NCBI GenBank assembly: GCA_037144075.1
Contig: JBAWXM010000001.1
Span: 910-64,909, forward strand
DNA length: 64,000 nucleotides
From: Lentisphaerota bacterium
GTDB taxonomy: Bacteria; Verrucomicrobiota; Lentisphaeria; Victivallales; Victivallaceae
Direction of reading: 5' to 3'
Of the stretch, positions 12,013 through 63,431 are shown in pieces. The first letter of the stretch is position 1, and each line of letters begins with the position of its first letter. The translations under genes and the position numbers were made by a program. The notes beneath the pieces were generated by a model. It searched no databases. It was given only the letters and a program-made list of their open reading frames with translations, and had not been told where the DNA came from.

Positions 12013-12639
12013 TTAATAATATATTTGTTTTTTGATGATCTCAAAAATATATTCGTGACCTTTGTGATTTGGGTGTATACCGTCGTGCAGCAGTTTAAAA
12101 TGCTCGTTGTTATTCTGCTCAAGAACGTCTTTTGACCAGATTGCATGTATGTCAATCAATTCAATATTGCAAGCCTCCCCGGCCTGCTTGACTATGTCTA
12201 TATATTCAGGCAGGAGTTCCCTGCGGCGTATACAATCTATGCCGCATGCATAATCCAGAGGATTTTGAGACAGCAGCAACAGCGGAATTTGGCTGTTCCG
12301 GCAAAACATGCACAGCTTGTTGAGCGCTGATTTAAATTGCTCCTGACCGGCTTTGCCGCGGCCGGAATCATTCATGCCGTACATTGCGGTGACAAAGTCC
12401 GGTTTGAACCGCCGGATCTTGTCAATGGCAAAGTTTGCGTCATCACTTAAAGAGCTGCCGCTGACAGCGGAATTTATAATGGTATATTTCCTTTTGGAAT
12501 ACGCATCACGTAACAGCTGGTCAAAATGCTGAAGGTAATTGTCATAGCCTTCAGTACAATGATTATACTCTGTTATGCTGTCGCCCAGCGCCAGCCAGAC
12601 AAAATATTCAGAGTTTTCTATAAGTTTTTTCAGATTCAT
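12013..12639 (-). CDS. SGNH/GDSL-family hydrolase (putative carbohydrate esterase)
   Basis: Block I is LALGDSITE, there is a GMND block, and block V is DGIHPN. Confidence 0.75.
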   Translation of the reverse strand: MNLKKLIENSEYFVWLALGDSITEYNHCTEGYDNYLQHFDQLLRDAYSKRKYTIINSAVSGSSLSDDANFAIDKIRRFKPDFVTAMYGMNDSGRGKAGQEQFKSALNKLCMFCRNSQIPLLLLSQNPLDYACGIDCIRRRELLPEYIDIVKQAGEACNIELIDIHAIWSKDVLEQNNNEHFKLLHDGIHPNHKGHEYIFEIIKKQIYY

Positions 12640-12685
12640 AATATTTCTTACGGCTTATCCAGTCTGCATTTATGAAAAATGAAGG

Positions 12686-15600
12686 TCAATTGAAAAACAG
12701 GTCCCGGAACAAGTACGGTTTTCTATGCGGTTCAGTCCCTTTCGGAGTCATCGTCAGGCCGGCCTTACGGCCTTTTCCGTCATTGTCGTTGACTCTGATG
12801 GCAAAGCCGACAGTTTCCCCTTCTGCGAATTTAACCATCGGCAAGCATTGGCGCGGGAATTTAATCTCATAGATGGTTTCGCCGTCTTTACGGGCGATTT
12901 GCACTTCCACTTCGCGATCAAGCCCGGTAGCCTGATTGGCTTCGCCGATATAACGGCCTTCACAACCTTTTTCAATCCAGGCCTGAGGTTTTCCTCCGGC
13001 CATGGAAATGGCGTAAACAATGTCGTCGCCATCAAATCCAGTATCGGACTCCGTCGCATTGTTAAGCTGATCGAAATATATCTGCAAAGAATCATAGTTC
13101 CATGCATTGGCCGGGGAGTCAGGATTGCAGGCGATATCATCTTTAACTTTGACCGCAACGGCAAAGTAATCTTTATTCCAGCCAATGGCGACCTGCGCAG
13201 AAAGATCTTTGATTCCATTATACGGATGCTGCGCATCCGGTTTGGCCGTCAAGTTTTCTTCGCCAAGCGCGATCCAGTGTGCATTCTGCCATTCATCCAG
13301 AAGACCGTCAACTTTAATCAGGTCAAGTCTGCCGACTAAAACCGGCGAGAGTTTAAATGTTTTCTTTACAAACACGTCGTTTGAACTTACGACAGCCGGA
13401 ACCATATAGCAGCTGTTATCATCCAGGATAAAGTTTCCCTGAAAGTCAATCTTAATGCTTTTTCCTGGATTTAAATCCGCGAATCCGGCCGTATTCCGGT
13501 CCAGTTGCCAGCCTGCCGGCAGTTCCGGAATGACCACCTTGCCGCTGACATTCTTGTTAAGCCGGTTGGTTACTGTAACAGACAATTTTTTACCTGTTGT
13601 CAGCGCCATATCTATCTTAAACGCCTCGCCCATCCCTAGAATATCGGCGGCCCTGATAGCATTAATAATTTCTTTTTCCCGGCATCCCGGTTTGAAACGA
13701 ATATAGACCGGCGCAGAAGAAACCGGCAATCCCTGCGCAAATTCTTCCTGAGTCAACTGGTTTCCCATCATATCATACGCCGCCAGATAACCATTCATTT
13801 TCATCCTGCCGCTGTGTTCCTGATTAATGGCGTTAACCGTCAGCAGCGGTCCGCCGGCGGCATCCGGGAAAAGGAATATTTTCAGTGCGCTGCCGGCTTC
13901 CAGCGGATACCCTTTGCCTGCGGTATTCAATAATCTGTTTGCTGCGCTGTACGCGGCAAAGGCATAATAAAGATAATACCGGTCATAACCGCCATAGCGG
14001 AAAAGAGTCAGCTGCGGACTGTATGCGCAATAAGGCACTCCGGCTGCGGCATGGTAAATATAGTTTCTGACGGTTCTTGCGCAGCTCTGGAGCTCTTCGC
14101 GATCTGGCAGATAGTAATCACGACTGCTTTCTTCGTCGGAGCCGTGCATGATGAATTTATTCGCCGCATAATATTGTTCTGTATTGATCATAGGGCCATG
14201 AAAATCATATCTGTCGAGTATTTTCCGGTATGCGCATAAATCATTATACACGTCAGGCAGATCCGGTGACGCGCGGTAGGAGTGGAAGGAAAAGATATCC
14301 ATATATTTGCCTGCTCCCAGCTTCATGGTTTCTTCCAGATATGCAAAATCATTCCCGTTCAGACAAACCCCGACCACCTGCAATTGCGGATTAACCTCCC
14401 TGATGGCCAGGTAAGCAGTTTGCAGCAATTGCACATATTTGGCCGGAGGCATCGTCTTCTCTCCTTTCCGCGGACCTTCGCGATGCCGCCAGAGATTAGG
14501 TTCGTTGGTAATCTCCCAGTATTTAATCTGATGCTGAAGCGGCACGACAACGGATTTCAAATATTCGCCATAGCGCTTAAGTGTCTGTCCGTCGATAACA
14601 TCATCATTAAGAACACGTTCAATGATATCCTTGGGAATATTATTAAAACAGGCCATCAAATCCTTCAATCCGCCTTGTATCTCGACTTCGCACCGCTGCC
14701 TGATTGAATCAATATAATTTTCCGGCGGAAGTGACTGCCATGCTTGATTCTTTAGAAAAAAACGGTTAATTCCTGTCCCCATCATTCTCATCAGCGGAGT
14801 TTCCTGCTTGATAATCCACTGCGGCAGATAACAGGTTTCATAACATACGCCGAACAGCGGCAGCCCGGGCGGTTCTGGAACTGGAGGCATGATCACGGCA
14901 TAACGTGATTGTCCGATGGAAATAAGCCTGCCCTGGTCATCGCCGGCTTTTGCTTCAAGTTCAAAAACGCCCAGCTTGCTATTCATCAATTTTACCGGTA
15001 GAACAGTGACCGGCGAAGAAGTATCGGCAGTCACGGTCTGTTCCCATACCTTTTTGCCACAGCTGTCTCTCGCGGATAAATCGATCCGCAATTTCTGCCG
15101 CATCTGGTTCTTCCGGACAATTTTCAACGTCATCTCAGCAGGTTCTTTATCTTGAATGAATATATTGCCGGAGACTGCAACAAAACCGATTTCAATTTCC
15201 GGCAACTGATAATCGGTTAAATCCCCCAGTTCCAATTGGATCTGATCGATAAGAACATTCCGTCCGTCAAAGCGGGCATATATCTTTTTCTGTTTCGAAT
15301 TATTCTTCCAGACACATGACAATGCTATCCGCGTCCAGTTTTCGGTTGATATTGATTTAATCTCTTTTACATATGACTTCCAGCCGGGGTCAAGCATGAA
15401 CATTTTCAAGCCGGCCTCTTTATCCGTTGCCTTGACATAAGCAGAGAGCGTATACTTGCTTCCCTCCTGCAAAGGGATACAGCCGCTGAACAAGGCGGTG
15501 TATTGATCTGCCAGAAAAAACGCGCAGGAGCCATCAACCCCAGCGCCGGGAATAATCCGGCATTCAGGAGCGTCGGCAACCGTTGCCGCCATCTGACAAC

Positions 15601-16703: not shown

Positions 16704-18107
16704 TCAATGTTTGCCGGCATACGCCTTTACTTTCTGATGTACAGCCAGCGTCCGCTCAGCCAGTTCTTTCATCGTAATCTCCTGAAAACCGAACACCAGC
16801 GGTTTAACCGTATCGTTAAGCGGCGCTGCGAGTTTACCACCCATATTCCGGTATCCGGCAGCAGTTCCGGCTATGGATCCGGCGGTAGCTCCGTTGCAAT
16901 CGGTATCGAGTCCGCCCATCACGGCAATCCCGATAGTTCTGTCGCAATTCATCTGTCCGTAGAACAGACTCATCATCACAATCAGGGCGTTGTTGACAGT
17001 ATGACCGGCATGCATGCCGGCATAACGCTTTTCCAGTCTGGGCATAAAATCTTCAAATGTAGCGCATTCAGGAATCCAGTTCAGCGCTTCGCGAATAGCC
17101 GTGGACAGACGACAATGGCGGGGAATTTCCGAAAGTCCGATCTCCACCAGTTTGCCCGGAGAGTTTTCTACAAAAGCCGCCGCAATCACTGCCGCAACAA
17201 ACATCTCGCCGTAAATGCCGTTGGCTGTATGCGTCCAGCAAGCGTCGCGCCAGGCATATTCCGCCGCCAGTTCCGGGTTGCCTGCGCAGGCATATGCCCA
17301 GCCGTCAGCGCGAATCTGCGCTCCGATTCTTTCGCGGTAAGGATTGTTATGACGTCGCGTAAAGGCTGCTGTTACAGGAATAATATCCGCGGGAAGGTCC
17401 CGCAATCGCAATGGACGGACTAAATTATAATTCAAAATTGCCTGTGCTTCCGCTGTACAGACAGCCTTGTAAGGCAACGAACTGTTCCATGTGTCGGGAA
17501 TGTCATACCACTGGAAGTCCGGACCTTTCTCCTCCAGAACCTTCAAGCCGGTCAGCGAGTAATGAATATCGTCATCCGGCTCCATAAACTTGATATTTTC
17601 CCGCCATGAAAGCGGGCATCCCAGTTTAATGCCGTCTCCAGTGTCACTGCCGCTGAAGTAATAGTCCAGTTCCCAGTGTCCGCGGTTTTTCAGATAATAC
17701 CGGATGGCCTCGCGTCCATTCATGTCGCCATGCCCGCGCATGCCAAGTCCCTCAACCGGTTTGCCAAGTGCACAACCGGCGGCGCGACCGGTCCAGGCGC
17801 CGCGGAAACGGTCAAGCAAATCTTTATCATTTAGCGCCAGCGGTAATTGGCGGGGCCCGGAAGGACGTTCTTTTTTTATTTCTTCCAGTTCATTGGGTTG
17901 AATAAAATCAAACTCCGGATCACGGGGCAAGTTCTCAAGTTCCGCATATATTGCCCGTATCTTTTTTTCGTTGTATGCATCGTATACCGGATGCAGCATG
18001 GCTATTTGTTCCGTCACTTTCTCCGGAATGATATAGCCTTCATATTCGAGTTGTACCAGTTCATCGCGCAACAGCGATAATGGGTGAGTCCAGCCTGAGA
18101 TCAACAT
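16704..18107 (-). CDS. ADP-ribosylglycohydrolase-family protein (467 aa, N-terminal extension)
   Basis: The GLDTDCNGATAGSIAGTAAG motif plus a GAWTGRAAGCALG-type N-terminal block are characteristic of the ARH/DraG fold. Confidence 0.8.
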   Translation of the reverse strand: MLISGWTHPLSLLRDELVQLEYEGYIIPEKVTEQIAMLHPVYDAYNEKKIRAIYAELENLPRDPEFDFIQPNELEEIKKERPSGPRQLPLALNDKDLLDRFRGAWTGRAAGCALGKPVEGLGMRGHGDMNGREAIRYYLKNRGHWELDYYFSGSDTGDGIKLGCPLSWRENIKFMEPDDDIHYSLTGLKVLEEKGPDFQWYDIPDTWNSSLPYKAVCTAEAQAILNYNLVRPLRLRDLPADIIPVTAAFTRRHNNPYRERIGAQIRADGWAYACAGNPELAAEYAWRDACWTHTANGIYGEMFVAAVIAAAFVENSPGKLVEIGLSEIPRHCRLSTAIREALNWIPECATFEDFMPRLEKRYAGMHAGHTVNNALIVMMSLFYGQMNCDRTIGIAVMGGLDTDCNGATAGSIAGTAAGYRNMGGKLAAPLNDTVKPLVFGFQEITMKELAERTLAVHQKVKAYAGKH

Positions 18108-18173: not shown

Positions 18174-19358
18174 CTATATGAAAAACAGTGCGCCAGCCAT
18201 GTCATCGTAAGCCGGAAGTGCTTCCAGGATGCGCAAGTACTTGTCATCACAATAATTTAGCGCGGCGATATAAAGTACCGGATTGAGCTTTTCCGGAGCG
18301 AAAGCATAAATTTCCGGGAAAGTCCATGGTTTCACGCCGGATGCGAATCCGGCCAGAAAATCAACACTGCGCCGTATGCTGGTCCCGTTGCTGGTCTGGT
18401 AGTTGAACAGATCCGCTCCGTATTCCTGCGCAATCGTGGCGGCAGCCATAAAAGCGCTGATACAGAAAATGGAGTACCCCCATGACTGAGTGCGTTTTAA
18501 TTCCTCAGGGATGCTGCCGTCCGCGCATATCTGGACTGATATCCGTACTTTGGCCTGCGCTATATACTCTTCGACAATGGCATCCAGACGGCACCACGCC
18601 GCCAGCTTCATGGCCAGTGCGATATACCATATCCCGTGATTATTAGGGGCGTTCTTTTCGTCCTGCCCGATTTTGCTCTGCCGCAGCCAGTCGAGATACG
18701 ATGTCATCCAGCTTTTCATGCCATCCTTATCCGAAGCCGTCAAGGACCTTGAATCTTTCAGCATGGTCATCGCATCGATTACCTGAATAAAAATATGGGT
18801 TTCAATAATGCCGGCATCTCTGCCGGTGTTGATCCCGGGAATCGCCTGTCCGAAATTCAGGTGTGGATTCATGGCGGCGCCGGGATTGAGAAACCAGTGG
18901 CGCAGCAGCTCGACTGCTTTTGCCGCCGCAGCGTCGTCCCGCGTGAAAAAAAACAGCATGGAGAAGGCATAGATACTTGAAATCATCCGGTTCATTTTTT
19001 TATGGTCGGAGGATTCCGATACCGCCTCCGGATTAAACTCGCCGTCTTTCCGGATATAAGGCAGACCGCCGGGCAAAGCAGGATCGGGAAACCAGTATGG
19101 CGCCTGGCTGTAATAATCATGAATGCTGCCGCCCGGGGGTAATATCAATTTATCGATCGCAACGCTTTCAGGCTGATAATCGCGGAGTCGTTTGAATCCG
19201 GCCACGTCCTTCACAATGTCAATCCTGACCGGGTCGCCTTGCTGATATGCGGAATAAGCCCGTTCGAGAATTACGGGAGACAAGGAAAAGACCTGCCGTG
19301 CAAAAATCTCACTGGAATTTATTTTGGTTTGTTCTTTTTTTAGACGTGCTGTTTTCAT
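18174..19358 (-). CDS. Alginate-lyase-family (PL5-like / PF05426-like) polysaccharide lyase
   Basis: APNNHGIWY and [23 protein letters not shown] resemble the NNH...W and DG..P.E..R...Y blocks of the alginate lyase family. The 4-nt overlap (ATGA) with the upstream prepilin-like gene implies an operon. Confidence 0.55.
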
Positions 19359-20167: not shown

Positions 20168-21220
20168 TTACCGGTCATGGTTGCATTTGGTACATGACTG
20201 ACGAACCTCTAGCGTCACCGGAAATTCCGGTTGAGAAATATTTTTTACCGTCTTCGAGTTAATTATCTCGATAAGTCTTTCCGCGGCATAGGCTCCGGTT
20301 GCGGCATTGTCATATTTCAGCGATGTGATGCCGGGAGAAAGAAAATCAAAAATTTCGTAATTATAATTACTGATCATGCTCAGGTCTTTCGGACAGCTCA
20401 TGCCGTACTTTGCCATTTCTTTTAAGATGCCCAGGCAGGTCTGCGGATTGGTAATTACCGCCGACGGGCGTTGTTTCTCGGAAAAATTAAAATAACTGGA
20501 GAAGAAAATTGAGGCAGCAGAGGCATCGCATTTGCAGTCCGGGGTAAAAACCGAATGGATTTTAATGCGGCCGGCCAGCGAACTTTGGCGGACATGATCT
20601 TCAAACTGTTCGGTAATATTCCGCGTATATTGACCGCCGCTATTGAGGAACATGACCTCGCGGTGTCCAAGCAGCGCCAGGTATTCCAGCGCCAGTATCC
20701 GGCCGCGGAGCATGTCGGGACCGAACACCGGAAGAGTACTGCCGTCGGCTTTGCCGGTGAATCCAACCCTGACGCATGGAACGTTCATTTGCTCAAACAG
20801 TTTCAGCATTCCGTCGGAGATCGCGTTGCTGATAATCAGACCGTCAATGCTCCGTTCGGTCACGCCGCGCGGAAAAACAAAATTAACGGTCTTTTCCGGG
20901 TTGCAGCAGTGAACCATTAAACTGTAATTATGTTTGCTGCAAGTGTCATCGATCCCGTTGAGTAATTCGGCGTAAAAAGGATTTGACCAGCGCTGCGCCG
21001 CATATTCCGGAACGATAAAACCGATATTGTAAGTCCTGCTGGTCACCAGCGCGCGGGCCGCTGCATTGGGGCGGTAGCCAAGTTTTTCCGCGGCGTCCCA
21101 GACCCGCTGCCTGGCTGCCGGTGTAAACGTTTCAGACTTGGGACGTTTGTTCAGAACCAGAGATACCGTGGACGGCTGCACTCCAGCCAGTTCCGCCACA
21201 TCTTTTAATTGTACTCTCAT
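20168..21220 (-). CDS. LacI-family transcriptional regulator
   Basis: The N-terminal HTH is MRVQLKDVAELAGVQPSTVSLVLNKRP, followed by a periplasmic-binding-protein-like sugar-binding fold. Confidence 0.88.
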   Translation of the reverse strand: MRVQLKDVAELAGVQPSTVSLVLNKRPKSETFTPAARQRVWDAAEKLGYRPNAAARALVTSRTYNIGFIVPEYAAQRWSNPFYAELLNGIDDTCSKHNYSLMVHCCNPEKTVNFVFPRGVTERSIDGLIISNAISDGMLKLFEQMNVPCVRVGFTGKADGSTLPVFGPDMLRGRILALEYLALLGHREVMFLNSGGQYTRNITEQFEDHVRQSSLAGRIKIHSVFTPDCKCDASAASIFFSSYFNFSEKQRPSAVITNPQTCLGILKEMAKYGMSCPKDLSMISNYNYEIFDFLSPGITSLKYDNAATGAYAAERLIEIINSKTVKNISQPEFPVTLEVRQSCTKCNHDR

Positions 21221-21445: not shown

Positions 21446-21449
21446 ATTA

Positions 21450-21505: not shown

Positions 21506-22531
21506 GTGATGAAAGAAAAATATTCCAGAAAAGTTCTGCTGGCAGTACCCGTGGACTATGGACGTTTTAACGAATTGTGGACGCAAGAATCTGCGGCTTG
21601 TGCCGCTTCCCTGGATCTTCAAGTTCATTTTATGGACAGGACACCTTTAAGTTTGTCCGGCTGGAATCAGGCGTTGGCCGGTTATCCGGCCATAATTACT
21701 TCCTGGTGTACTCCGCCGCTGAACCGGGAGGTGCTGGACGGCAATAAGGACATAGCTCTGATTGCGCATGCAGCCGGTTCAGTCGCTGATCTGGCCGCGG
21801 AATTGCCGCGGCCTGATATTATGCTGACTACCGCCAATTCCATCATGGGCGCGTCTGTTGCCGAATGGTGTATGGCGATGACCTGGGCGGGGTTGGCCAG
21901 TCTGGTCAAATATGCTAACTTCGGCGGTTTGCGGCCGCTAAACTGGAATAAAGTTACCGCCGACTTCCGCAATATCCGCAACTCGGCAGTCGGGATCTGG
22001 GGTTATGGTAATATCAGCGCTGAATACATCCGCATTTTAGAGGCTTTTTTTCCTGCGAAAATTATGGTGCACAGCAGTCATTTCCGTCCAGGCGAAGAGG
22101 ACATTGAGTCTGCCGCGCTGGAAGATATTTTCTCTCAGGCGGATGTTGTTGTTCTGTTAGCCGCGCTTACCACGTTGAATGAGGGCCGGATTGACGCCAG
22201 ACTGCTGCGACTGCTCAAACCCGGCGCCGTGCTGCTCAATCCGGGCCGCGGCCGGCTCATTGATGAAAATGCGTTGATCGACGCACTTAATCAAAACCGC
22301 TTCACTTATATCTCGGATGTATTTCACCAGGAACCCCTGCCTGATAATAATCGCCTTCAGCAATTTTCCAATGTCATATTAACGCCTCATTGCGCGGGGC
22401 GGAATACTGGTCAGTTCGTTCCTGCGATGCTTCAGGAGGTGAGCAGGTTCTACAATGGCGAACTCCTGAAGTATGCGGTTTCAAGCGAGCGGCTGAAAAC
22501 AATGACCAGCAACAGGTTGAATTATGAATAA
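21506..22531 (+). CDS. D-isomer-specific 2-hydroxyacid dehydrogenase family protein
   Basis: The NAD-binding motif is GIWGYGNISAEY. Also present are LLNPGRGRLIDENALIDAL and TPHCAG near the C-terminus. Confidence 0.8.
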   Translation: MMKEKYSRKVLLAVPVDYGRFNELWTQESAACAASLDLQVHFMDRTPLSLSGWNQALAGYPAIITSWCTPPLNREVLDGNKDIALIAHAAGSVADLAAELPRPDIMLTTANSIMGASVAEWCMAMTWAGLASLVKYANFGGLRPLNWNKVTADFRNIRNSAVGIWGYGNISAEYIRILEAFFPAKIMVHSSHFRPGEEDIESAALEDIFSQADVVVLLAALTTLNEGRIDARLLRLLKPGAVLLNPGRGRLIDENALIDALNQNRFTYISDVFHQEPLPDNNRLQQFSNVILTPHCAGRNTGQFVPAMLQEVSRFYNGELLKYAVSSERLKTMTSNRLNYE

Positions 22532-23360
22532 CACGACTCCGCATCTCTCTTTTGCCGCTGACCGGCTTCGGTGGTGTTTCTCTTCGCTCGGCTGCGCAGA
22601 TTTCAGTCTGGATGAAATCATTGCCCTTGCACGAATCAATGGTATTAAGGCGATTGAACTGAGAGCGTTTTCCGGTTCTCTGGATCTACCCGGACTTTTT
22701 GATGAGTATAAAGCAGGCGCTCCGGATCAATATCGCGCCATCATTGAATCCGGAATCATCAAACTGATTGATACATCTTTCAACTTAGCCGGATCTGAAG
22801 AACCTGATTTTGATTATATTCTCAAACTGGCGCGACTGGCCGATGAATTGCACGTTCCTTACTGCCGCGTTTTCGGCGGGTTTGAATACAGCAGGAATCC
22901 GCAGCGGGAAACTCTGAACCAGGCTGCTCAAACTTTGCAGCAATGGAACAAAATCAGAAAGACTTATCAGCTTAACTGCCAGCTGGCGGTTGAAACCCAT
23001 GACGGCTTTTCATCCGCCGCCAACTGCATTCGCTTCTTCTATGCCGCCGGACAGACTATGCCCGTGGTCTGGGATACCCATCACACATGGCGCTGCGGCG
23101 GAGAATCTTTTACTGACAGTTTGACATTGCTGGGAGAAAGTATCGTCCATGTTCACGTTAAAGACAGTGTTAAAGCCGCTGATGGGAAAATCCGGAATGT
23201 TCTGCCGGGTCATGGAGATATTCCAATAAAATGTCTGCTTGCCTTGTTGCGCGAAATGAATTTTCAGTGTCCAGTGTCACTGGAGTGGGAACGATTATGG
23301 GAACCTGAACTCCCGCCATTGGCAGATGCGTTGAGTGCTGTTAGCAGCAACTGGCTTTAA
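22524..23360 (+). CDS. Sugar phosphate isomerase/epimerase (xylose-isomerase-like TIM barrel)
   Basis: GIKAIELR, LAVETHDG and VHVHVKD blocks are present. It overlaps the upstream gene by 8 nt. Confidence 0.75.
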   Translation: MNNTTPHLSFAADRLRWCFSSLGCADFSLDEIIALARINGIKAIELRAFSGSLDLPGLFDEYKAGAPDQYRAIIESGIIKLIDTSFNLAGSEEPDFDYILKLARLADELHVPYCRVFGGFEYSRNPQRETLNQAAQTLQQWNKIRKTYQLNCQLAVETHDGFSSAANCIRFFYAAGQTMPVVWDTHHTWRCGGESFTDSLTLLGESIVHVHVKDSVKAADGKIRNVLPGHGDIPIKCLLALLREMNFQCPVSLEWERLWEPELPPLADALSAVSSNWL

Positions 23361-24442: not shown

Positions 24443-25531
24443 ATGAATGTGTTGCAGGAAAATATATATAAGTACTTGCTGGATAGCATTTCCGCAGGCA
24501 AACTGTGCAAGGACGACCGCATTCCAACAGAAAATGAGTTGGGAGAGATGTTCAACACCAACCGGATGAATGCGCATTTTGCGATTAAGGAGTTGGAGCG
24601 ATCGGGGGTTCTGCGGCGGAATAAGGGGCAGGGAACTTTTGTCCGCCATGTACCGAGAATTTATTCACTTGGCAAGTTAAAGAGTGTCGCCACCAGGCGT
24701 ATTTGTGTGCTTAATCTGTGCTATTCCAGGTCATCACAGGTACATTGGAATAACCGGATCATCAATGCGCTGGAAGAAACATTAAGGGAATCGGATATTG
24801 AGATAGCCTATAATGATGTTTCCGGGTTCCAGACATTGGAGGAATACAAAGAATTACTGGAGACATTGCTTCTGGAGGGCTGCAACGGCCTGATTATTAT
24901 TGACAATGGTGAAAATGATTTTTTAATTGATCACATGGAAATATTTTTTAAATTCCATAATAATGTTTATATTTTTGACCGCGGGTTCAAGCAGTGGCAG
25001 GATATGCCGTATAATGTGGTTTCGATGAATATATTTGGCGAAGGCTTAATTGCCGCCGAATATCTGCTAATGAAAGGCTATGTTGATGTGATTTTTTGTA
25101 AAAACTGCGAGGATGAGCATTGGTTGCGGGAGCGGATTCGCGGCATGCAGTTTGGTTTTAATCGCGGACAATGTAAAAAAGAAATGGTAATTTGCGAAGT
25201 CAGTGAAAATGGCATAAACTGTGATTTGATGCAAAAAATAAAAGCTGCGCCGGGAAAATATACGCTGGCTGTCCAAAACGACTTTCTGGCGGCGAGAATA
25301 ATTGATTATTGCTCATCCGCCGGTCTTAAGGTCGGCAAGGATTTCAGAACCATTTCCTTTGACGACAGCGCTGAATTGAGGAACTATGACCTGACCACTG
25401 TTTCTCCGGCGCTGGAGCGCATCGGCAAATACCTGGCGGCAATCGTCAAAAAAAATGTGGACAAGAATGACTGCAAAGAGATTTTATGCGTTAAAATTAA
25501 TTCGGAATTAGTCGTAAGAAGTTCGTGTTAA
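24443..25531 (+). CDS. GntR-type HTH fused to LacI/PBP-like sugar-binding domain regulator
   Basis: DRIPTENELGEMFNTNRMNAHFAIKELERSGVLRRNKGQGTFV is a GntR winged helix. The C-terminal part is PBP-like (GLIIIDNG ... ISFDD). Confidence 0.8.
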   Translation: MNVLQENIYKYLLDSISAGKLCKDDRIPTENELGEMFNTNRMNAHFAIKELERSGVLRRNKGQGTFVRHVPRIYSLGKLKSVATRRICVLNLCYSRSSQVHWNNRIINALEETLRESDIEIAYNDVSGFQTLEEYKELLETLLLEGCNGLIIIDNGENDFLIDHMEIFFKFHNNVYIFDRGFKQWQDMPYNVVSMNIFGEGLIAAEYLLMKGYVDVIFCKNCEDEHWLRERIRGMQFGFNRGQCKKEMVICEVSENGINCDLMQKIKAAPGKYTLAVQNDFLAARIIDYCSSAGLKVGKDFRTISFDDSAELRNYDLTTVSPALERIGKYLAAIVKKNVDKNDCKEILCVKINSELVVRSSC

Positions 25532-26363: not shown

Positions 26364-28121
26364 ATGCATTATGTCAAAATAAAGAAGCTTCGTTGTGTAT
26401 TAGTTGCGGTTGGTATCCTTGGAGCAAGCCACGCAGATATACTGGCAGACGATGCCACCGATGAGTCCATACCGGAATTTGCCGCCTCGATTTATTCACC
26501 GAATACAAAATGGACGGTAACACCGTCGGCAGCGTTGATCAAGGAGGAGGATATTAACGATGTGGACCATGGCAAAGGAAAAAGTTTTACTATTGACATG
26601 TCAAAAGTCACTGATCGTTTTACCATTCGCCTGAGCGGTTTCAGCGCTGATATCAGCCAGGCGGGATGGGCGGGCGCATGGATGAAAGTCAGTAACCGGG
26701 AGCCGTTTTCTGCAGTGAATATCTATGCGTTTACAGCGAAAGGATGTTTCAAGAGATCGCTGCAATACTTGGGTAGTATTGAAAGTCCATGGCTGGAATT
26801 GGGCGTCAGCGCGGCGTTGGCATCCAATAAAAATTATTATGAAGGCAGTCCGAAATGGGACGAGCCGCTTCAAGCAATTAACTTTTGCGGTTGGAAATCT
26901 AAAAGTATTTCCACTGTTAAAGAGTGGCGGACAACTGTAACAATTGCCGGTTTTGCGGCGGACAAACGTTCCGGAGTGGAAAAGGAATTCACCATTCCCA
27001 AGGCGGAACAGGCGATGAAGAAACCTGTCAGACGCAATGTTAACGGTGTATTGCTGGAAACCCGTCCGCTGTTAGTTGAGACCGGCGTATGGCTGGACGA
27101 TGGAGTTGATGTAGCGCTGGACAAGACGGAACGTTCTGGACATAATGTTTTTGTTCCTTGCGTATGGCGCGGAATTGGTACGATCTACCGTTCTGAGAAT
27201 GAGCAGAAAATTGATTACCGTTATGAAAAATACTTCATCGGCGACAAGGATCCAATCAAGGAATTGATTGAAAAGGCGCATGCCAGAGGCATCGAGGTTC
27301 ATGCCTGGTTCTGTGTGGCTATGAATAATGCTGGATATGCTCCATATCATCCAGAATTCAAGGAGCCAGGGTCGCCTGCAAATGCTTTTGACATGCAGAA
27401 TCCGGCATTTCGAAATTTCATTGTCAAAGAAATTGTGGATTTTGTTAAAAAATACAACGTGGATGGAATCTGTCTCGATTATATCCGCACCGCCGGGATT
27501 TCTTTCAGCAAAACTGCTGCTGAAATTTATCAGCAGAAATATGGTACCGACATAAGTGAATTGAAAGGAACAAACTGGATGTCCGATCCGGCATTAAACA
27601 AGCGTTTACTGGACTGGCAGGAAGCGGCGGTTTCGGATGTGGTAAAACGCGTCAGTGAAGGTGTCCGTGCGATTAAACCGGGATTGATTATCACTACTTG
27701 CGGCTTGCCCTTGCCGAAACCGCAGTTGCACGAAGAGGGGCGGAATGAATGGCTCTGGCTGGAAAAAGGCTGGATTGATGTTGCTTATGATATGGATTAC
27801 GGTTCCGCGCCGGGCGCAAAACTGTTACAGGTCAGAGCCGCTCAACCCGCATATGCCGACCGTTATGCCAAAATGCTTGGTATTTACAGCCGGTTTCCCA
27901 GCGCAAAGAACATCATTAAGGTTGAGGGTGATATGCTGGGGTCGCGTTCAGGAACAGGTTATGCCAATGCCGTTGAATATTCACTCAGAAAATTTTATGG
28001 TACTGGCGGCGTGGCCACTTACTGGTATGAAAACCTGAATAAAGAAATCTCGGATGCGCTGAAGACCGGTACATACAAAGAAAAAGCACTGCCTGCATGG
28101 AAAGAGAACTATAAAAAGTAG
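26364..28121 (+). CDS. Secreted protein with C-terminal glycoside-hydrolase-like family 10 (GHL10/DUF187-like) TIM barrel
   Basis: A signal-like N-terminus is present. GIEVHAWFCV and YNVDGICLDYIRTAG resemble the GHL10 (YngK-like) blocks. Confidence 0.5.
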   Translation: MHYVKIKKLRCVLVAVGILGASHADILADDATDESIPEFAASIYSPNTKWTVTPSAALIKEEDINDVDHGKGKSFTIDMSKVTDRFTIRLSGFSADISQAGWAGAWMKVSNREPFSAVNIYAFTAKGCFKRSLQYLGSIESPWLELGVSAALASNKNYYEGSPKWDEPLQAINFCGWKSKSISTVKEWRTTVTIAGFAADKRSGVEKEFTIPKAEQAMKKPVRRNVNGVLLETRPLLVETGVWLDDGVDVALDKTERSGHNVFVPCVWRGIGTIYRSENEQKIDYRYEKYFIGDKDPIKELIEKAHARGIEVHAWFCVAMNNAGYAPYHPEFKEPGSPANAFDMQNPAFRNFIVKEIVDFVKKYNVDGICLDYIRTAGISFSKTAAEIYQQKYGTDISELKGTNWMSDPALNKRLLDWQEAAVSDVVKRVSEGVRAIKPGLIITTCGLPLPKPQLHEEGRNEWLWLEKGWIDVAYDMDYGSAPGAKLLQVRAAQPAYADRYAKMLGIYSRFPSAKNIIKVEGDMLGSRSGTGYANAVEYSLRKFYGTGGVATYWYENLNKEISDALKTGTYKEKALPAWKENYKK

Positions 28122-32208: not shown

Positions 32209-32335
32209 AAGGCTCCCATGTCCATGCGCATACACACTGGAGTTCATGAATGAGATTGAATCGGATATCGCATAAATTAAATGGAAAATCAAAATATTAC
32301 ATCATAATAACTTATTGAGAAAGGATGTAAATTTC

Positions 32336-48799: not shown

Positions 48800-48948
48800 T
48801 TGCCATTCTTTCTTTTGTTGCGTTACTCTCATTATTTTTTAAATTTATGCTTTCCCAATAAACTACCATAATACCGGGATATTTTTCCCTGACTTATGTT
48901 AATTTCATTTTACCATTAACTTCATAAAAAAAGATTTATCAAAATCTA

Positions 48949-49641
48949 TTACGGTAGTTGTCCAAGCTCTTTGACGCCTTTAATTGGATCCCAGAATAAA
49001 TAAACACTAGCGCTGCCATAAGGATAATTGGTTGCAGATTTTACTACTAGATCAAAAGACTCCGATTTAACATGTCCATCGCAGTAAACTGCGTTAATCA
49101 TTTTGCCATGCCGCGCTAGGTCAGTAAGCAAATAATCATAAGCCGCAGCACCAGTAAAATATGGGGGCGCTATAGATGAGTTAGGAGTCGCGCTAGTTAT
49201 CTTAAATCGACCTCCATCCATAATAAGCATGTGTTTCGCTGGTGTTTTAATTTTGGCAATAGCAAGCTCGGCTACAAAATGATTAATTGCATAACTCGTG
49301 TTGTGGCCGCTTAAGTTAGGATTTACATAAGCCGGGCATTGGTAGATCATTTTATTTTTAGCTAAATCATCGAGACCCAAAAGTGGCGAAGTAAGAGCGA
49401 CCCAGTTGGTAGTGTTCCACAAAGGGGAGCTATATCGGGTATCGTTGCAATACGGCATATATTTAGTGTTATCGGCATACATTTGACTAGCTAAACCTAT
49501 ATTTTTCAGGTTGCTAACGCATGCAATTGAACGAGCTTTTATCCGCGCATTGTTAAGCGCAGGCAGCAGCATCGCCGCAAGAATTGCTATAATAGCAATC
49601 ACTACCAAGAGTTCTATAAGTGTAAAATTATTGTTTTTCAT
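48949..49641 (-). CDS. Prepilin-type N-terminal domain protein with exact H-X9-DG motif
   Basis: [49 protein letters not shown] at the N-terminus. The C-terminal motif is [16 protein letters not shown] (H-X9-DG). Confidence 0.88.
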
Positions 49642-49810
49642 AGTAAAAGCCTCCCAATTTAACGTGTTTTATTTTTTTATTTCGTAAGCGTCTAATTATA
49701 ACAAATTAGCTTCGCAAAGCTAACTTAGAAGAAAACAATTCTTTTAGAACTTAAGGTCTTCTATTTTTTGCCATTCATATTTATTTGTAATGGTACTCCA
49801 ATTTATTGCT

Positions 49811-50785
49811 CTATGCTTTAAACAAATTTTTCACGGAATCACGGATTATCAATCTGTTTGGCAACATTTTTATCTGAAACGAAAGTTCTTTATTGCTGGT
49901 CTTCTGGGTTACCTGCCGGATCAGCTCCAGCATCTCATCCGCGATGGCAAAAACATCCTGATCGATGGTGGTCTGAGGAGGTGAAAGCCAACGGGAAAGT
50001 TCATCTTTTTCATAGCCGATCACAGACAAATCTTCCGGTATTCTGACATTCAGCAGGTTCAGACAGTAGGCTGCCTCGGCGGTCAGGCTTTCCCCGCTGA
50101 TAATCAATGCTGTAGGGTGATCCTTCAGCAGAATTGCTATCAATTCAACTAGAGACTGCTTCTTGGGGTAGTATACGTATTCCTTTAACGGCTGAAGGCT
50201 ATGCTTTGTCATGGTTTCCACATACCCGCGCAGCCGTTCATGCCCAGCCCATATGTCAATCCTATCCAGTAAAAGCGTAATCCGCTTATGCCCGTTTTCG
50301 ATCAAATGTTCAGTTGCCAATTCGATCCCCTGTGCATGGTCGGAACGAACCAAGTGGCAGTATTGGCTTTTAAGATTGACTGCCAGCAGAGGTATCGGCA
50401 ATTTTCTGAACCTGGCTTCTTCCAGTTCAAGTTTTTTCTCGTCGATAATTAAAATCGCTGCTTTAGTATGTGGTCCCAGCAGCTCGACATCTTTAAGTTC
50501 AACCGTTCTGACTTGATAACCGAAACGCGTAAATTCCGTAATTATCGCTATTACTAGCATTAGATAAAATCCGTCAAGAGCCCTGAATTTGTTCATGCTG
50601 TCAACAACAATCGCGATATTCTCCTGCGCCGCAACCTGTTTCGGCATGTAATTCATTTCTCGTGCAAAATGAAGAATCTGCTCCTTCACGCTATTACTAA
50701 CACCAGCTCTACGATTAAAAACACGCGATACGGTAGCTTTGGACACCCCGCACTTTTCTGCAATCAAATTTATATTAGCTTTCAT
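49811..50785 (-). CDS. LacI-family transcriptional regulator
   Basis: The HTH is MKANINLIAEKCGVSKATVSRVFNRRAGVS, followed by a PBP-like domain. Confidence 0.88.
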   Translation of the reverse strand: MKANINLIAEKCGVSKATVSRVFNRRAGVSNSVKEQILHFAREMNYMPKQVAAQENIAIVVDSMNKFRALDGFYLMLVIAIITEFTRFGYQVRTVELKDVELLGPHTKAAILIIDEKKLELEEARFRKLPIPLLAVNLKSQYCHLVRSDHAQGIELATEHLIENGHKRITLLLDRIDIWAGHERLRGYVETMTKHSLQPLKEYVYYPKKQSLVELIAILLKDHPTALIISGESLTAEAAYCLNLLNVRIPEDLSVIGYEKDELSRWLSPPQTTIDQDVFAIADEMLELIRQVTQKTSNKELSFQIKMLPNRLIIRDSVKNLFKA

Positions 50786-54658: not shown

Positions 54659-56314
54659 TCAATATACTTTGATGGAGTCTAAATAGACTCTGATATCCTG
54701 TGCCATGCTGGTTCCTGATGGCCATTCCGGTTGTGCATATAGTCCTCCAAAAGCGAATTTTCGCAATATCTTCTTCTCTAAAATACAATGATGTTCATTT
54801 ACAAAAATCTCAAAATGCTTAGCAGTTAAAATTAATTTAAACTTTACCTCTCCGCGCTTAACTTTATTTTCAAGAACGTATTTTTTACCATCGACGGTTT
54901 TTAATACTATACTGTCAGCTAAAAATTCTTTGTCATATTCTGCCTCGACGACCAACCCGTTACGGGTCTTTCCGCCGATAGAGAATAGCGGGAAATTTTC
55001 TTCGTCCCGTCGATAAAATAATTGCATCGTAAATTCAAAATTTACTTTTTCCGCCATGTTAAGTGCTTCGGACAGTACCACTCCAAGCGTAGCCTCTTTT
55101 AAGCTTAATGACGCAATCTGCCCGCTTATAAACCGCAAACCATTTCGTCCGGCACGCGGCAATAAGAACGGGCGGTCAAATTTTGGCAGTGGCGTGACTT
55201 TCGCCCCCATGATAGTGCTTGGATAGGTATAGGCCAAATATAGTGAATTATTTTCAACAAAACCATTGGGATAGAATGCAATGCCGCTTTCCGGTTGCAC
55301 CAATGGTCCTGGCAGCATAAGATCAACCTCGCCGCCAGGTGCGAAAAATAACGCAAGTTTATGGCGGTCGTGAGGAATACGCTGCGGCAATCCTGCAGGC
55401 CAATCATTCATGACCATTAAAATTGAATCCCTGGCATTGATTTGGCTCAAAGTGAAATTTCGTGAATATATTGTGTCGATTTCCACCGGACGGCATCTGC
55501 TCCATGTCTTTCCTCCGTCGCAACTGACCGCATGTAAAAGCATTTGTTCCGGCCTGGCATAATGGTCAAGCGCGGGGTTATCCTGTGTTGTAGAATTTCT
55601 GATCAGTAATTCGAGTGAGCCATCCTGGCGCTCAAACACCGCCGGTTCCCAAATTGAAGTTTTTTCTGGTCCGATCCCGTCCGGTAAAGTTCCAATTTCA
55701 GTTTTGGTCTGAGCCGCAATTGGTTCGCTCCATTGCCAGCTATTACCGTCATCAAAACTCATTAACAATGCGGCAAAACAGGTATTCCCGACGAGATACT
55801 GTCCGCTCCTGTTAGGTAAACTGCACGGGAAGATCATCACTCCCTTTGAGGTGATTAATCCGTGGTTTGTCGGAAATCCTGTCTCATCGTGCGCCAAAAC
55901 ATCAGGTACATTTTTAACCTCTTTATTTTTCCAATGCACCCCGTCTGTAGACTCTGACACGAACACCCGGCGCGTAAGCATATCGCACCATGCACAAAAA
56001 AGTTTTTCGTCCTTGAAATTGATGAAGGATGGTTGCCACTGATTGTCGCATTTCACCGGATTTTGACAATTCTCTTCTGATGAGAAAAGTTTTATTGGCG
56101 AAGTCCATGTTTGAAAGTCGTCGCTGATGCTTAAAAAGTTATATTGCCCGGATACTCCCTCTTTCGGTAATTCATTCGCATTCCATCCGGCGAAGTATTT
56201 ATCTTTAAATTTTACAATGTCCACGTCATGATTATACCGCAAACATGGCTGCATGTTTGCTTTCGGGACATAAATCGGGAAAAACTCAACTTCCGGCTGA
56301 TAAATCTCTAACAT
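54659..56314 (-). CDS. BNR/Asp-box repeat glycoside hydrolase (sialidase-like beta-propeller) with C-terminal beta-sandwich
   Basis: Four Asp-box-like motifs are present: SDDFQTW, STDGVHW, FDDGNSW and SCDGGKTW. Confidence 0.65.
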   Translation of the reverse strand: MLEIYQPEVEFFPIYVPKANMQPCLRYNHDVDIVKFKDKYFAGWNANELPKEGVSGQYNFLSISDDFQTWTSPIKLFSSEENCQNPVKCDNQWQPSFINFKDEKLFCAWCDMLTRRVFVSESTDGVHWKNKEVKNVPDVLAHDETGFPTNHGLITSKGVMIFPCSLPNRSGQYLVGNTCFAALLMSFDDGNSWQWSEPIAAQTKTEIGTLPDGIGPEKTSIWEPAVFERQDGSLELLIRNSTTQDNPALDHYARPEQMLLHAVSCDGGKTWSRCRPVEIDTIYSRNFTLSQINARDSILMVMNDWPAGLPQRIPHDRHKLALFFAPGGEVDLMLPGPLVQPESGIAFYPNGFVENNSLYLAYTYPSTIMGAKVTPLPKFDRPFLLPRAGRNGLRFISGQIASLSLKEATLGVVLSEALNMAEKVNFEFTMQLFYRRDEENFPLFSIGGKTRNGLVVEAEYDKEFLADSIVLKTVDGKKYVLENKVKRGEVKFKLILTAKHFEIFVNEHHCILEKKILRKFAFGGLYAQPEWPSGTSMAQDIRVYLDSIKVY

Positions 56315-61156: not shown

Positions 61157-61216
61157 GATTTTTCCAATCCTTTTATTGATCAGCTCATTTGCATTTGATT
61201 TAATTTTACCGTATTA

Positions 61217-61549: not shown

Positions 61550-61613
61550 AACTATCCTTGATATCCAGCAGTGGTGAATTTTTATTTTGACTTATCTATT
61601 CATCAAAGCAACT

Positions 61614-62339
61614 CTACATGTTTTTCCAGAAAATGGCGGCATTGCCAACCGTGGCTACGCTGCCGTTTATCGGGATATTATCCCGGCGTTTAGCGGCAAC
61701 ATGCCCGTCAACAAAACCGATATTGGCACCGGAAAGACCTAAGTGACGCCAGAATGCGCCGGTGCCATCGACCATTCCGTCCGAAGTTTCACGCTGATTG
61801 GCCATGCCGTCCGGCCAACTGCCCACTTTGCTTATATCAAAAATCAGCGCTGTCGCGGTAGGCATTCTCATTTTATTAAAATTGCGAATGATCAGTCCGC
61901 TGGTGCTATTGCCGTTACCGTTGTTTTCAGTCGCAACATTGGTATTGATCCCGTAATGAATTGACGCCTTGGTTTCGTCAAACTCTTTCGAACTGGGGCA
62001 GGCAAATGGGCCAATCGGGCGTTTTGTTCCTCCACCAGTGGTATACAATACAGGATTTATCGTCGGATTATAAATCCTCATTAACGCATCCTGCCACTTC
62101 CCGGCGGTGTTGCTGCTGCCGTTCGCAAAATTTCCCTTATTCGCCGGAACGAGTTTATAGGTGTCAACATACATTATTATATATAAGGCCACCTGTTTTA
62201 AGTTGTTTGAACACTTAGTCTCTTTAGCCTTTTCCCTGGCTTTATTCAATGCAGGAAGCAGCATTGATGCCAGAATTGTGATGATAGATATGACAACCAG
62301 TAATTCTATGAGCGTAAATAAGTTAAACTTGCACTTCAT
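61614..62339 (-). CDS. Prepilin-type N-terminal domain protein (pseudopilin-like)
   Basis: [51 protein letters not shown] at the N-terminus. The C-terminal motif is [18 protein letters not shown]. Confidence 0.85.
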
Positions 62340-62513
62340 TGTAGTTGCTCCTTTATTGCATTTATGATTGATTTGGATTGCTTGCTGTTTATAAGTTTAC
62401 AATTAAATCCGTCATAAAGCAATAGCCTGTTTGTTAACACAGAAGACACTTATTAACTATAATGACATTTGTAATTATTGTATTTGTCCTTTTGGTTAAG
62501 TCATGTCGGAAAA

Positions 62514-63431
62514 TTATTTCATATGTGTTGCACGGTATTCTCGCGGGTACATGCCAAATTTACGTTTAAATGCTACCGAAAATTGCTGAAGTGAACTAAA
62601 TCCGGTAGATTTACTTAAATCGGTTATTTCAGTTGTGCTGTTAAGCAGGAGATTCAAGGCGCGTTCAAGACGCGATTCGAGCATGTACTGGTTAATGGTT
62701 TTATTCTCGGAAGCTTTAAAAATACGGTTAAGTTGACGACCGCTAAGGTGAAACATATCCTCAAAGTCAGACAGATACACTGGACGGTTGATATAATTTT
62801 CTATTCTCAGTTTTATTTCTCCGACGAGATTGGATGTTTTGTCCAGCGCCCATAGTTCGGCATGGAAGTTTTTGAATAAGGCTGGATCAAAATTTAGCTG
62901 GATCATCTTTAAAAGCAGTTCCTGGAAGCGCATTTTTACAATATTTGCACTCAATTCCGAAGTATCGCCAACATAGCTGGAAATAAATTCAAAATCACGA
63001 AAAAAGTCACCTGGCAATTTTACTTGATAAGAGCTTTTTTTTATCAGGCTGTCAAAATGCATCAACTGCTTTATTCCTGATTTGTTTATCGGTTCACAGT
63101 TAAAAAACACTGAGAAAATAATACTGCCCTCGGAGATTTCATGTTGATGCAAGAGAAGCGGAGGGTAAAAAAAACCTTTCTTATGCTCCACATGCAGTGA
63201 TAGCTTGCGGCCGTCGATTAAAGTAGACATTTCCCCGGCAAACATGACTGAAAACTCATAATTTGGACGTTGATGTTCGTCAATGACGTATTTGTGATCA
63301 AAGATATTAGTCTTGAAACTTAACGTTTTGATCTCGAAGTTACCTATTTTGAAAGTTGGTAAGCTATCGATAATATCAATCATGGCTAGATTGGCTGCTT
63401 CGAACTTATCTCTTTGCTCTGGCGTTATCAT
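62514..63431 (-). CDS. AraC-family transcriptional regulator
   Basis: The C-terminal HTH pair reads DMFHLSGRQLNRIFKASENKTINQYM ... LSKSTGFSSLQQFSVAFKRKFGMYPREYR. Confidence 0.85.
   Translation of the reverse strand: MITPEQRDKFEAANLAMIDIIDSLPTFKIGNFEIKTLSFKTNIFDHKYVIDEHQRPNYEFSVMFAGEMSTLIDGRKLSLHVEHKKGFFYPPLLLHQHEISEGSIIFSVFFNCEPINKSGIKQLMHFDSLIKKSSYQVKLPGDFFRDFEFISSYVGDTSELSANIVKMRFQELLLKMIQLNFDPALFKNFHAELWALDKTSNLVGEIKLRIENYINRPVYLSDFEDMFHLSGRQLNRIFKASENKTINQYMLESRLERALNLLLNSTTEITDLSKSTGFSSLQQFSVAFKRKFGMYPREYRATHMK

Follow-up and report, generated by a model that had tools for sequence, protein, structure and literature searches.

A regulator, a prepilin-like DUF1559 gene and exported proteins form a recurrent sugar-operon architecture in Lentisphaerota

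Planctomycetota, Verrucomicrobiota and Lentisphaerota rank among the main degraders of complex glycans in the gut, the rumen and the ocean, and to our knowledge these three phyla have none of the SusC/SusD systems by which glycan use is explained in Bacteroidota, where SusD, a lipoprotein rich in tetratricopeptide repeats, works with the TonB-dependent SusC. All three phyla carry tens to hundreds of copies per genome of DUF1559/H-X9-DG genes, whose products combine an N-terminal prepilin-type helix with a C-terminal His...Asp-Gly motif. Here we describe five such genes in a stretch of 64,000 nucleotides (nt) from a gut Lentisphaerota genome (assembly GCA_037144075.1, contig JBAWXM010000001.1, positions 910 to 64,909; this whole stretch is called the window, and positions are counted from its first letter). 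Each of them follows a sugar-type regulator and precedes at least one gene for an exported protein, and the same layout recurs across the phylum.

The DUF1559/H-X9-DG family is known for its large paralogous expansions, and its function is uncharacterised: Planctopirus limnophila has 68 copies, two of them essential (PMC10632474), and Rhodopirellula baltica has 74 copies of the DUF1559 type (PMC2754498). The Lentisphaerota copies share the helix and, often in relaxed form, the C-terminal motif, and they differ from the others in lacking Gly or Ala at position −1 of the prepilin-type cleavage site and in their fixed operon position, which we found only in this phylum. The nearest precedent comes from Verruconatronum alginivorum (Verrucomicrobiota), in which 2026 proteomics placed a pulG-like pseudopilin with 67 paralogues in the alginate cluster, the source of most genes over-expressed on alginate, and the authors suggested lyase export by a type II secretion system (T2SS; PMC13274419). 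Compared by description, that pseudopilin is likewise a paralogue embedded in a polysaccharide-lyase cluster, but it belongs to another phylum and was reported in passing for one cluster, with no rule of regulator, pilin and enzyme and no pairing or co-divergence with a particular enzyme. In cultured Lentisphaerae, T2SS genes are up on laminarin (PMC11361711, supplement).

Three further systems invite comparison. With the T2SS pseudopilins (GspG/PulG and the minor GspH-K) the window proteins share a class III signal-peptide-type N-terminus, Glu+5, a hydrophobic α1 helix and probably a pilin-like fold, as well as the enzyme-export role that we propose for them below. The minor pseudopilins probably make contact with the substrates to be secreted. 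The window proteins are not GspG orthologues: they have 230-260 amino acids (aa) compared with a model of ~134 positions, they lack Gly at −1, and their genes occur one per catabolic operon, apart from gsp machinery, whereas the pseudopilin gene occurs once in the gsp operon. Glycan-binding type IV pili (T4P), namely the Caldicellulosiruptor pilin CbPilA and the fibres of Planctomycetes, are also pilin-type proteins or fibres that are induced by or bind polysaccharides. These cases concern either a single major pilin, encoded in a full T4P locus, or fibres whose composition is unknown, and not operon-specific paralogues by the dozen that each have an exported enzyme as partner. SusD finally follows the same logic of a divergent, locus-specific and non-catalytic envelope protein that is co-regulated with the enzymes of each glycan locus. 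It has no homology to the prepilin-like proteins, and no TonB-dependent receptor or SusD family match was found in window open reading frames (ORFs) of ≥150 aa; the analogy to SusD, which an earlier note on this DNA had drawn, therefore holds as a concept but not for the genes themselves. We found no description of an architecture of regulator, pilin-like gene and exported carbohydrate-active enzyme (CAZyme) in the literature on DUF1559, on H-X9-DG proteins or on pseudopilins of Lentisphaerae and Victivallis.

The earlier note, made from the letters alone, had listed five prepilin-like genes, each behind a regulator. All five ORFs were confirmed at the same positions (Table 1), and in all five modules a regulator lies directly upstream on the same strand: LacI in two, a GntR helix-turn-helix (HTH) protein with a periplasmic-binding-protein domain in two and AraC in one. 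Given the 42 genes of the window, among them 6 sugar regulators and 5 prepilin-like genes, a same-strand regulator ahead of all five was reached by only 2 in 10^6 label shuffles. The prepilin-like gene is in each module the first structural gene behind the sugar-responsive regulator. Further downstream, Pfam recovered the families that had been read from the letters (Alginate_lyase, ADP_ribosyl_GH, GDSL, GHL10, Abhydrolase_7, GHL6, GH2 and BNR_2), although in the 1344-aa protein of module i, taken at first for an enzyme of glycoside hydrolase (GH) clan GH-A, it found only the carbohydrate-binding modules (CBMs) CBM9 and CBM4_9 and left the GH-A domain unconfirmed. By a signal-peptide heuristic, at least one protein per module is exported, including the product of the gene right after the prepilin-like gene in 4 of the 5; the description of the downstream products as secreted glycan enzymes does not extend to seven genes without a signal peptide. 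The modules thus combine exported with cytoplasmic proteins, and module ii adds a transporter of the major facilitator superfamily (MFS), a GH4 and a NagB-like protein.

The neighbourhood counts that the earlier note had proposed were made over 80 related loci. These were collected by scanning the conserved N-terminal peptide against one genome per species (32 loci from Lentisphaerota, 29 from Verrucomicrobiota and 10 from Planctomycetota), and our own ORF-based gene calls gave 102 prepilin-like genes in them. Both a regulator at position −1 and an exported product at position +1 were enriched in Lentisphaerota. Pfam searches of the upstream neighbours detected Peripla_BP_3 in 13/88 (with GntR in 8 and LacI in 3) and AraC HTH_18 in 6/88, so that 19/88 were regulators, compared with ≤4/150 random genes of the same loci (≤1 Peripla_BP_3 and 3 AraC; Fisher p = 3e-6). 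In a jackhmmer-based position profile, a regulator stood at −1 in 17 of 42 Lentisphaerota cases, 13 times on the same strand, and at +1 to +3 in 0/107; outside the phylum, −1 was occupied by a regulator in 1/35 cases from Verrucomicrobiota and 0/10 from Planctomycetota. The order of regulator and pilin-like gene is strictly directional, and it is a trait of Lentisphaerota and not a general trait of the Planctomycetes-Verrucomicrobia-Chlamydiae (PVC) group.

The exported proteins are also tied to position. A same-strand +1 gene of ≥150 aa was signal-peptide-like in 14/20 Lentisphaerota cases, compared with 19/120 background genes more than three positions away (p = 2e-6) and ~32% at +2/+3. The exported +1 genes of Lentisphaerota are large, with products of 600-1290 aa, and only 4-60 nt separate them from the prepilin-like gene (a few to ~100 nt overall). 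Pfam annotation of ten +1 genes showed glycan-active proteins, with heparinase II/III-like, GH123_N with Laminin_G_3, DUF4838 with CBM9 and GH67N, CBM4_9 with CBM9, heparinase II with F5/8 type C, and pectate-lyase-like matches. All three elements in strict order, first a regulator, then a prepilin-like gene and then a gene for an exported protein, occurred in 11/42 Lentisphaerota cases, and, in a small sample, regulated runs contained an exported protein in 15/17 when a prepilin-like gene was present and in 1/4 when it was absent. Independent gene calls with precomputed Pfam matches gave the same picture, for example LacI, DUF1559, Hepar_II_III and an SSF transporter in one locus and LacI, DUF1559, three unknowns, AP_endonuc_2 and a rhamnosidase in another. 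This layout of regulator and exported neighbour was not seen in the loci from Verrucomicrobiota and Planctomycetota. With a regulator upstream and an exported CAZyme downstream, each at its own position, the prepilin-like gene of Lentisphaerota is, as the note had surmised, a locus-specific component and not a random neighbour. Overall, this is a real, statistically supported and lineage-wide operon architecture built around a known but uncharacterised family.

The window also holds a sixth sugar regulator, an AraC protein (4649-5512, minus strand) that is divergent from GH35 and GH2 beta-galactosidase genes at 5610-10510. Neither enzyme has a signal peptide and the unit has no prepilin-like gene, which fits the view that the prepilin-like gene accompanies exported proteins. 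Genes for ADP-ribosylglycohydrolases and for AP_endonuc_2 proteins (xylose-isomerase-like TIM barrels) recur within or beside sugar operons with a prepilin-like gene, namely at 16704-18107 and 22524-23360 of the window and on two unrelated Lentisphaerota contigs (L092, 16854-17822; L093, 16226-18714).

All five prepilin-like proteins begin with M-(K/R-rich, 4-20 aa)-FTLIELLVV.AII.ILA.MLLPAL. They pass the NCBIfam model of the prepilin N-terminus, TIGR02532, with 18.8-22.0 bits (cutoff 16.3), and one of the five is above the Pfam cutoff for N_methyl, the other four falling ≤3 bits short. Four match PF07596 (DUF1559/SBP_bac_10) with 30, 32.2, 35 and 38 bits, and the fifth, of module ii, lies at 21.2 bits slightly under the cutoff of 23.3; these matches span only profile positions 2-33 to 2-79 of 268. 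Models of the GspG, PilA and ComGC type matched only the N-terminal ~55 residues, far under their cutoffs, with 27-33 bits for the GspG model TIGR01710 (equivalog cutoff 88.85; aligned residues 2-65 of 134). The NCBIfam scan of the five proteins reported no H-X9-DG model. NCBI labels the window proteins 'DUF1559 domain-containing protein', and JGI labels their homologues 'prepilin-type processing-associated H-X9-DG protein'.

The first ~45 residues had been described as nearly invariant, which agrees with their identity of 67-84% among the five. The remainder had been called unrelated, and this has to be corrected: at 19-27% identity, all five retain an H-X9-11-(D/G/S)G-x-V motif and share Cys-Pro, Tyr and Asn positions in the alignment. 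The strict form H-X9-DG occurs in module iv only, and the others have H-X10-DG, H-X11-DG, H-X9-GG and H-X9-SG at the aligned place. Across 89 family sequences, Cys41, Tyr55, Trp80, Cys102-Pro103, Tyr117, His178, Asn183 and Asp188-Gly189 were invariant or nearly so. The shared C-terminal motif and these conserved positions indicate that the five are very divergent paralogues with one fold, as judged from their sequences. The full-length protein of module iv has at least 7,984 relatives. For its globular part of ~180 residues alone, a search of 1.84 billion cluster representatives gave only 22, of which 8 reach E ≤ 1e-10; the helix is therefore common and the head private.

An AlphaFold2 (AF2) model of the module iv protein (mean predicted local distance difference test score, pLDDT, 78; predicted TM-score, pTM, 0.77) comprises a helix at residues 8-59, a variable region and a small antiparallel sheet of 4-5 strands. 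Its top Foldseek matches in the PDB are type IV pilins, although weak ones (best E = 0.13, TM 0.2-0.35), and profile matches to PDB sequences are limited to the α1 helix of PilA, geopilin, PilE and GspG. By their N-terminus and probable fold, the window proteins are probably members of the pilin-like superfamily. Neither the sequence nor the fold searches of the PDB gave a functional lead for the globular domain. A solute-binding protein, as the Pfam name SBP_bac_10 might suggest, was rejected because the model is a long helix with a small sheet and not a two-lobed fold, and no binding-protein structures were among the listed Foldseek matches.

The first ~45 residues with the α1 helix, including Phe+1, Glu+5 and Pro+22, are almost invariant across thousands of paralogues. 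At the DNA level, the 135-nt segments that encode the helix share no more than 62-71% identity among the five genes, and their synonymous codons are scrambled. An invariant helix over scrambled codons indicates selection on the protein and points to a conserved partner of the helix. On the same grounds we rejected a DNA-level recombination or gene-conversion element as the source of the conserved 5′ segment.

Between regulator and prepilin-like gene, module iv has a palindrome of 24 nt (AAATTAGCTTCGCAAAGCTAACTT) with 10-nt arms and 1 mismatch, which lies beside a −10 element of the form TGnTATAAT. The two read as a candidate operator and promoter of the module, and their place between the two genes suggests that the prepilin-like gene is the first on the regulated transcript. 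In the other four modules our own scan detected no palindrome of comparable clarity, and a separate repeat search found no operator palindromes in the regulator-to-prepilin gaps. A scan of 44-51 kb for consensus promoters and terminators gave counts no higher than in shuffled sequence.

We propose, with a probability of about 40%, that each prepilin-like gene encodes a pilin-like adaptor, specific to its operon, for the cognate enzyme that is exported. From the invariant helix and the private head we infer a mechanism in which the helix would dock all paralogues into a single common partner with genes in another part of the genome, candidates being an assembly platform like that of type II secretion or type IV pili and the remaining subunits of one pseudopilus, and in which the private domain would bind the cognate enzyme in the periplasm. 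The enzyme would thereby be coupled to outer-membrane export, held on a cell-surface fibre, or both, and induction of the operon by its sugar would supply adaptor and enzyme together. A broader version, which we put forward only tentatively and consider doubtful as a whole, is a cartridge-type system of export or display with one adaptor per glycan operon, one shared machine and a non-canonical processing, the last because Gly at −1 has been abandoned.

The closest view of such a partnership comes from module iv, the only module for which co-divergence of pilin and enzyme was examined. Its prepilin-like gene precedes an exported protein of 586 aa whose family has 13 members at E ≤ 1e-10. Of 10 distinct contexts that are close or of the gut type, 9 have a prepilin-like gene directly upstream of this protein; homologues with this arrangement are found in L090, L094-L096, L098, L099, L101 and L138. 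Five further contexts were retrieved by exact protein, and in these the prepilin-like gene comes immediately before in L094, L095, L096 and L098 and is absent in L097, a sediment metagenome. P0005 (in L090), the closest homologue of the module iv prepilin-like protein with sufficient context, also has a copy of the 586-aa protein, 41% identical, right after it. Relatives of this protein were sought twice in metagenomes: a two-sequence alignment gave no matches, and a 14-sequence alignment found the pair or the full triplet in the gut-type L099, L101 and L138/140/142, and L100 as an exception with no prepilin-like gene upstream.

In four orthologous pairs, in which the enzymes are 35-43% identical, the pilin globular domains without the helix score 78-97 bits against that of the window (31-36% identity), compared with 69 bits as the best score otherwise among 258 scored pairs of Lentisphaerota globular domains. 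An all-against-all comparison of pilin-domain with enzyme similarity in 27 Lentisphaerota pairs was too sparse, with a single homologous enzyme pair. The regulator ahead of the pair varies: it is a LacI protein in the window, GntR in L094, L095 and L098 and a divergent AraC in L096, and none is adjacent in L090. Together, these data show that the pilin-like gene of module iv stays with the gene for the 586-aa protein in other genomes and that the two co-diverge, under a regulator that is exchanged. Two Logan contigs from other assemblies (L003 and L004) carry an identical unit of LacI, prepilin-like gene and 586-aa gene that is followed by a LacI-type regulator instead of the GntR gene of module iii; this differing neighbour indicates that modules are seemingly reshuffled as units between close strains.

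Several observations weigh against an adaptor role. In module i, the gene next to the prepilin-like gene has no signal peptide. Genes for pilus or secretion machinery were found neither in the window nor in the 6.5 kb preceding it; in agreement with the earlier note, which had seen none in any module, the ORFs of the window of ≥150 aa show no family match for an ATPase, platform, secretin or peptidase of a T2SS or T4P. Among distant relatives of the 586-aa enzyme (23-28% identity, mostly from sediment and freshwater), a prepilin-like neighbour was present in only 6 of the 58 with a called upstream gene; the pairing is therefore a lineage-specific habit and not an intrinsic need of the enzyme. 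Pilin domains of moderate similarity (60-70 bits) adjoin unrelated enzymes. The counts themselves derive from crude and noisy gene calls, from loci picked by their likeness to one window protein, and from signal peptides called throughout by our own heuristic of N-terminal hydrophobicity and charge in place of SignalP.

The residue before the cleavage site is a further point. At −1, the five window proteins have N, S, V, N and L, and only 5 of 44 Lentisphaerota relatives have G or A, the others having R, S, T, K, N, H, D, P and others. G or A is present in all 35 sequences from Verrucomicrobiota and all 10 from Planctomycetota (45/45 together); among 120 close homologues, 18 have it. Phe+1, Glu+5 and Pro+22 are kept despite the change at −1. 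The prepilin peptidase was reportedly shown by Strom and Lory in 1991 to require Gly at −1. The loss of Gly or Ala, combined with this need of the canonical enzyme, means that the Lentisphaerota copies may never be cleaved or assembled, which would tell against the adaptor proposed above. Either the phylum has a peptidase of relaxed specificity, or the proteins stay uncleaved and anchored in the inner membrane. We found no mention of this loss in the literature searched.

The missing Gly keeps alive an uncleaved inner-membrane tether, which we consider unlikely, if still deserving of attention. Here the N-terminus would be a signal-anchor and no fibre would form; the periplasmic domain would retain, chaperone or position the enzyme near transporters, or bind oligosaccharide. 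In its favour, the −1 position is unconstrained in Lentisphaerota where the sister phyla always have G or A, and a short basic leader with a 24-residue hydrophobic helix makes a classic N-in anchor. The operons also bring together MFS or SSF transporters and enzymes of both kinds, exported and cytoplasmic, as expected of periplasmic processing, and both the Pfam name SBP_bac_10 and an older paper (PMC2754498) label the family as solute-binding. However, the near-invariance of α1, including Glu+5 and Pro+22, far exceeds the needs of an anchor and points to a conserved protein partner, the model resembles a pilin fold and not that of a two-lobed periplasmic binding protein, and the peptidase of the phylum may have relaxed its specificity.

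Equally improbable, in our estimate, is that the proteins are subunits of a glycan-capture fibre. In this case, the private domain would bind the glycan of the operon and a retractile T4P-like fibre would bring polysaccharide to the cell, a function like that of SusD. The probably pilin-like fold with its α1 helix and the presence of one paralogue per sugar-regulated operon are in line with such a fibre. There are also precedents, as pili-like fibres of Planctomycetes bind gold-labelled dextran (PMC5394234) and the major pilin of Caldicellulosiruptor bescii is induced by xylan and binds xylan and cellulose (bioRxiv 10.1101/614800). Co-divergence with the enzyme would be expected here as well if both follow the same glycan. 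Yet the loss of Gly at −1 speaks against canonical processing and fibre assembly, and no retraction ATPase or secretin is nearby in the window. The peak of exported proteins at +1 (70% signal-peptide-like, compared with ~32% at +2/+3) and the CBMs that the neighbouring enzymes themselves bear favour a protein partner, as in the adaptor reading, over a free binder of glycan.

That there is no specific coupling, and that numerous DUF1559 genes land in operons by duplication or encode general envelope proteins co-regulated with nutrient acquisition, would suit the very large size of the family (at least 7,984 matches), the extra copies in Lentisphaerota flanks (about 1 per 38 kb), the 20/42 Lentisphaerota copies with neither regulator nor exported neighbour in our own gene calls and the absence of such neighbourhoods from the Verrucomicrobiota and Planctomycetota loci, but it is very unlikely in view of the strong directionality (regulators upstream only, exported proteins peaking at +1), the five of five modules in the window and a gene pair that is conserved and co-diverges under a changing regulator.

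A rule of one pilin-like gene per sugar-regulated operon together with one exported enzyme would give an anonymous family a testable role, and the genes at 48949-49641 and 47072-48832 are a named pair on which to test it. If true, the cartridge-type system would be a PVC counterpart of SusC/SusD logic and would assign a role to DUF1559, which is among the largest families of uncharacterised paralogues in this group. The glycine lost from the cleavage site poses a question of its own, that of how the phylum processes its pilins. The pilin-like gene could also serve to mark new exported CAZymes, as two of its neighbours in the window, of 586 and 791 aa, lack a family assignment.

The 586-aa protein had been noted as a secreted unknown of 575 aa; it is exported, as stated, but has 586 aa from the first Met and is no longer without a likely class. 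Its AF2 model (pLDDT 85.7, pTM 0.89) has a central TIM barrel between two beta-sandwiches, Foldseek matched it to GH5 with CBM, GH101, GH98, GH51 and GH30, and D211, E212, E287, E374 and E389 are invariant or nearly so. On this modelling, it is very probably a new glycoside-hydrolase-like protein and a candidate for a new GH family. The 791-aa protein of module iii matched nothing in Pfam, NCBIfam or the PDB sequences, and searching by fold offered no lead to its function either. Its gene forms a sharp island of G+C content (GC), 0.59-0.64 compared with 0.41-0.46 in the flanks, and these sharp bounds suggest recent horizontal acquisition into the slot downstream of the prepilin-like gene. The GH2-like gene of module v is also elevated in GC (0.54).

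Table 1 Genes and other features of the five modules (signal peptides by heuristic; a slash in a leader marks the prepilin-type cleavage site)
Feature	Position	Strand	Evidence and details
Module i regulator, LacI family	20168-21220	-	Pfam LacI, Peripla_BP_3 and Peripla_BP_1
Module i prepilin-like DUF1559, 233 aa	19355-20056	-	PF07596 30 bits, N_methyl, TIGR02532; leader end ...KQLN/FTLIELL; motif H-X10-DG; overlaps next gene by 4 nt
Module i alginate-lyase-like	18174-19358	-	Pfam Alginate_lyase; no signal peptide
Module i ADP-ribosylglycohydrolase	16704-18107	-	Pfam ADP_ribosyl_GH; no signal peptide
Module i CBM9/CBM4_9 protein, 1344 aa	12686-16720	-	Pfam; signal-peptide-like from internal start
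Module i GDSL esterase	12013-12639	-	Pfam GDSL; no signal peptide
Module ii regulator, GntR HTH with Peripla_BP_3	24443-25531	+	Pfam
Module ii prepilin-like DUF1559, 250 aa	25561-26313	+	N_methyl 30.3 bits, PF07596 21.2 bits, TIGR02532; leader MIKKKS/FTLIELL; starts 29 nt past regulator
Module ii exported GHL10	26364-28121	+	Pfam; signal-peptide-like
Module ii Abhydrolase_7 esterase	28376-29443	+	Pfam; no signal peptide
Module ii GHL6	29604-31760	+	Pfam; no signal peptide
Module ii GFO/IDH/MocA	32315-33526	+	Pfam
Module ii MFS transporter	33547-35526	+	Pfam
Module ii GH4	35948-37294	+	Pfam
Module ii NagB-like	37297-38082	+	Pfam
Module iii regulator, GntR HTH with Peripla_BP_3	45614-46744	-	Pfam
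Module iii prepilin-like DUF1559, 261 aa from ATG at 45244	44459-45244	-	PF07596 32.2 bits; leader MKRHV/FTLIELL; NCBI gene call likewise 261 aa
Module iii exported protein, 791 aa	41666-44041	-	Signal-peptide-like; no family match
Module iv regulator, LacI family	49811-50785	-	Pfam
Operator-like palindrome AAATTAGCTTCGCAAAGCTAACTT, module iv gap between regulator and prepilin-like gene	49703-49726		Sequence reading and palindrome scan
Module iv prepilin-like DUF1559, 230 aa	48949-49641	-	Pfam, NCBIfam; leader MKNNN/FTLIELL; strict motif H-X9-DG
Module iv exported protein, 586 aa (575 aa from second Met)	47072-48832	-	Signal-peptide-like; no Pfam match
Module v regulator, AraC family	62514-63431	-	Pfam HTH_18 and HTH_AraC
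Module v prepilin-like DUF1559, 241 aa	61614-62339	-	PF07596 38 bits; leader MKCKFNL/FTLIELL; motif H-X11-DG
Module v small exported protein, 110 aa	61217-61549	-	ORF list; signal-peptide-like
Module v exported GH2-like, 1128 aa	57770-61156	-	Pfam; signal-peptide-like
Module v exported protein, 220 aa	57097-57759	-	Signal-peptide-like
Module v protein without assignment, 228 aa	56323-57009	-	No signal peptide
Module v BNR_2 protein	54659-56314	-	Pfam; no signal peptide

Other pilin-like genes lie outside the modules. Another N_methyl gene (207 aa) is found ~6 kb ahead of the window, and a cluster of pseudopilin-like genes of the Tad (tight adherence) type, with no ATPase nearby, occupies 7-3260 of the window and 10980-15060 of locus L179. 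Its ORF at 7-1677 covers the C-terminal portion of a protein of 640 aa that faintly matches the Tad family PF13400, and the ORFs at 1674-2351 and 2595-3260 have the N-termini G/QAIVEM and G/QAIIEM, so that Gly at −1 is kept in these two.

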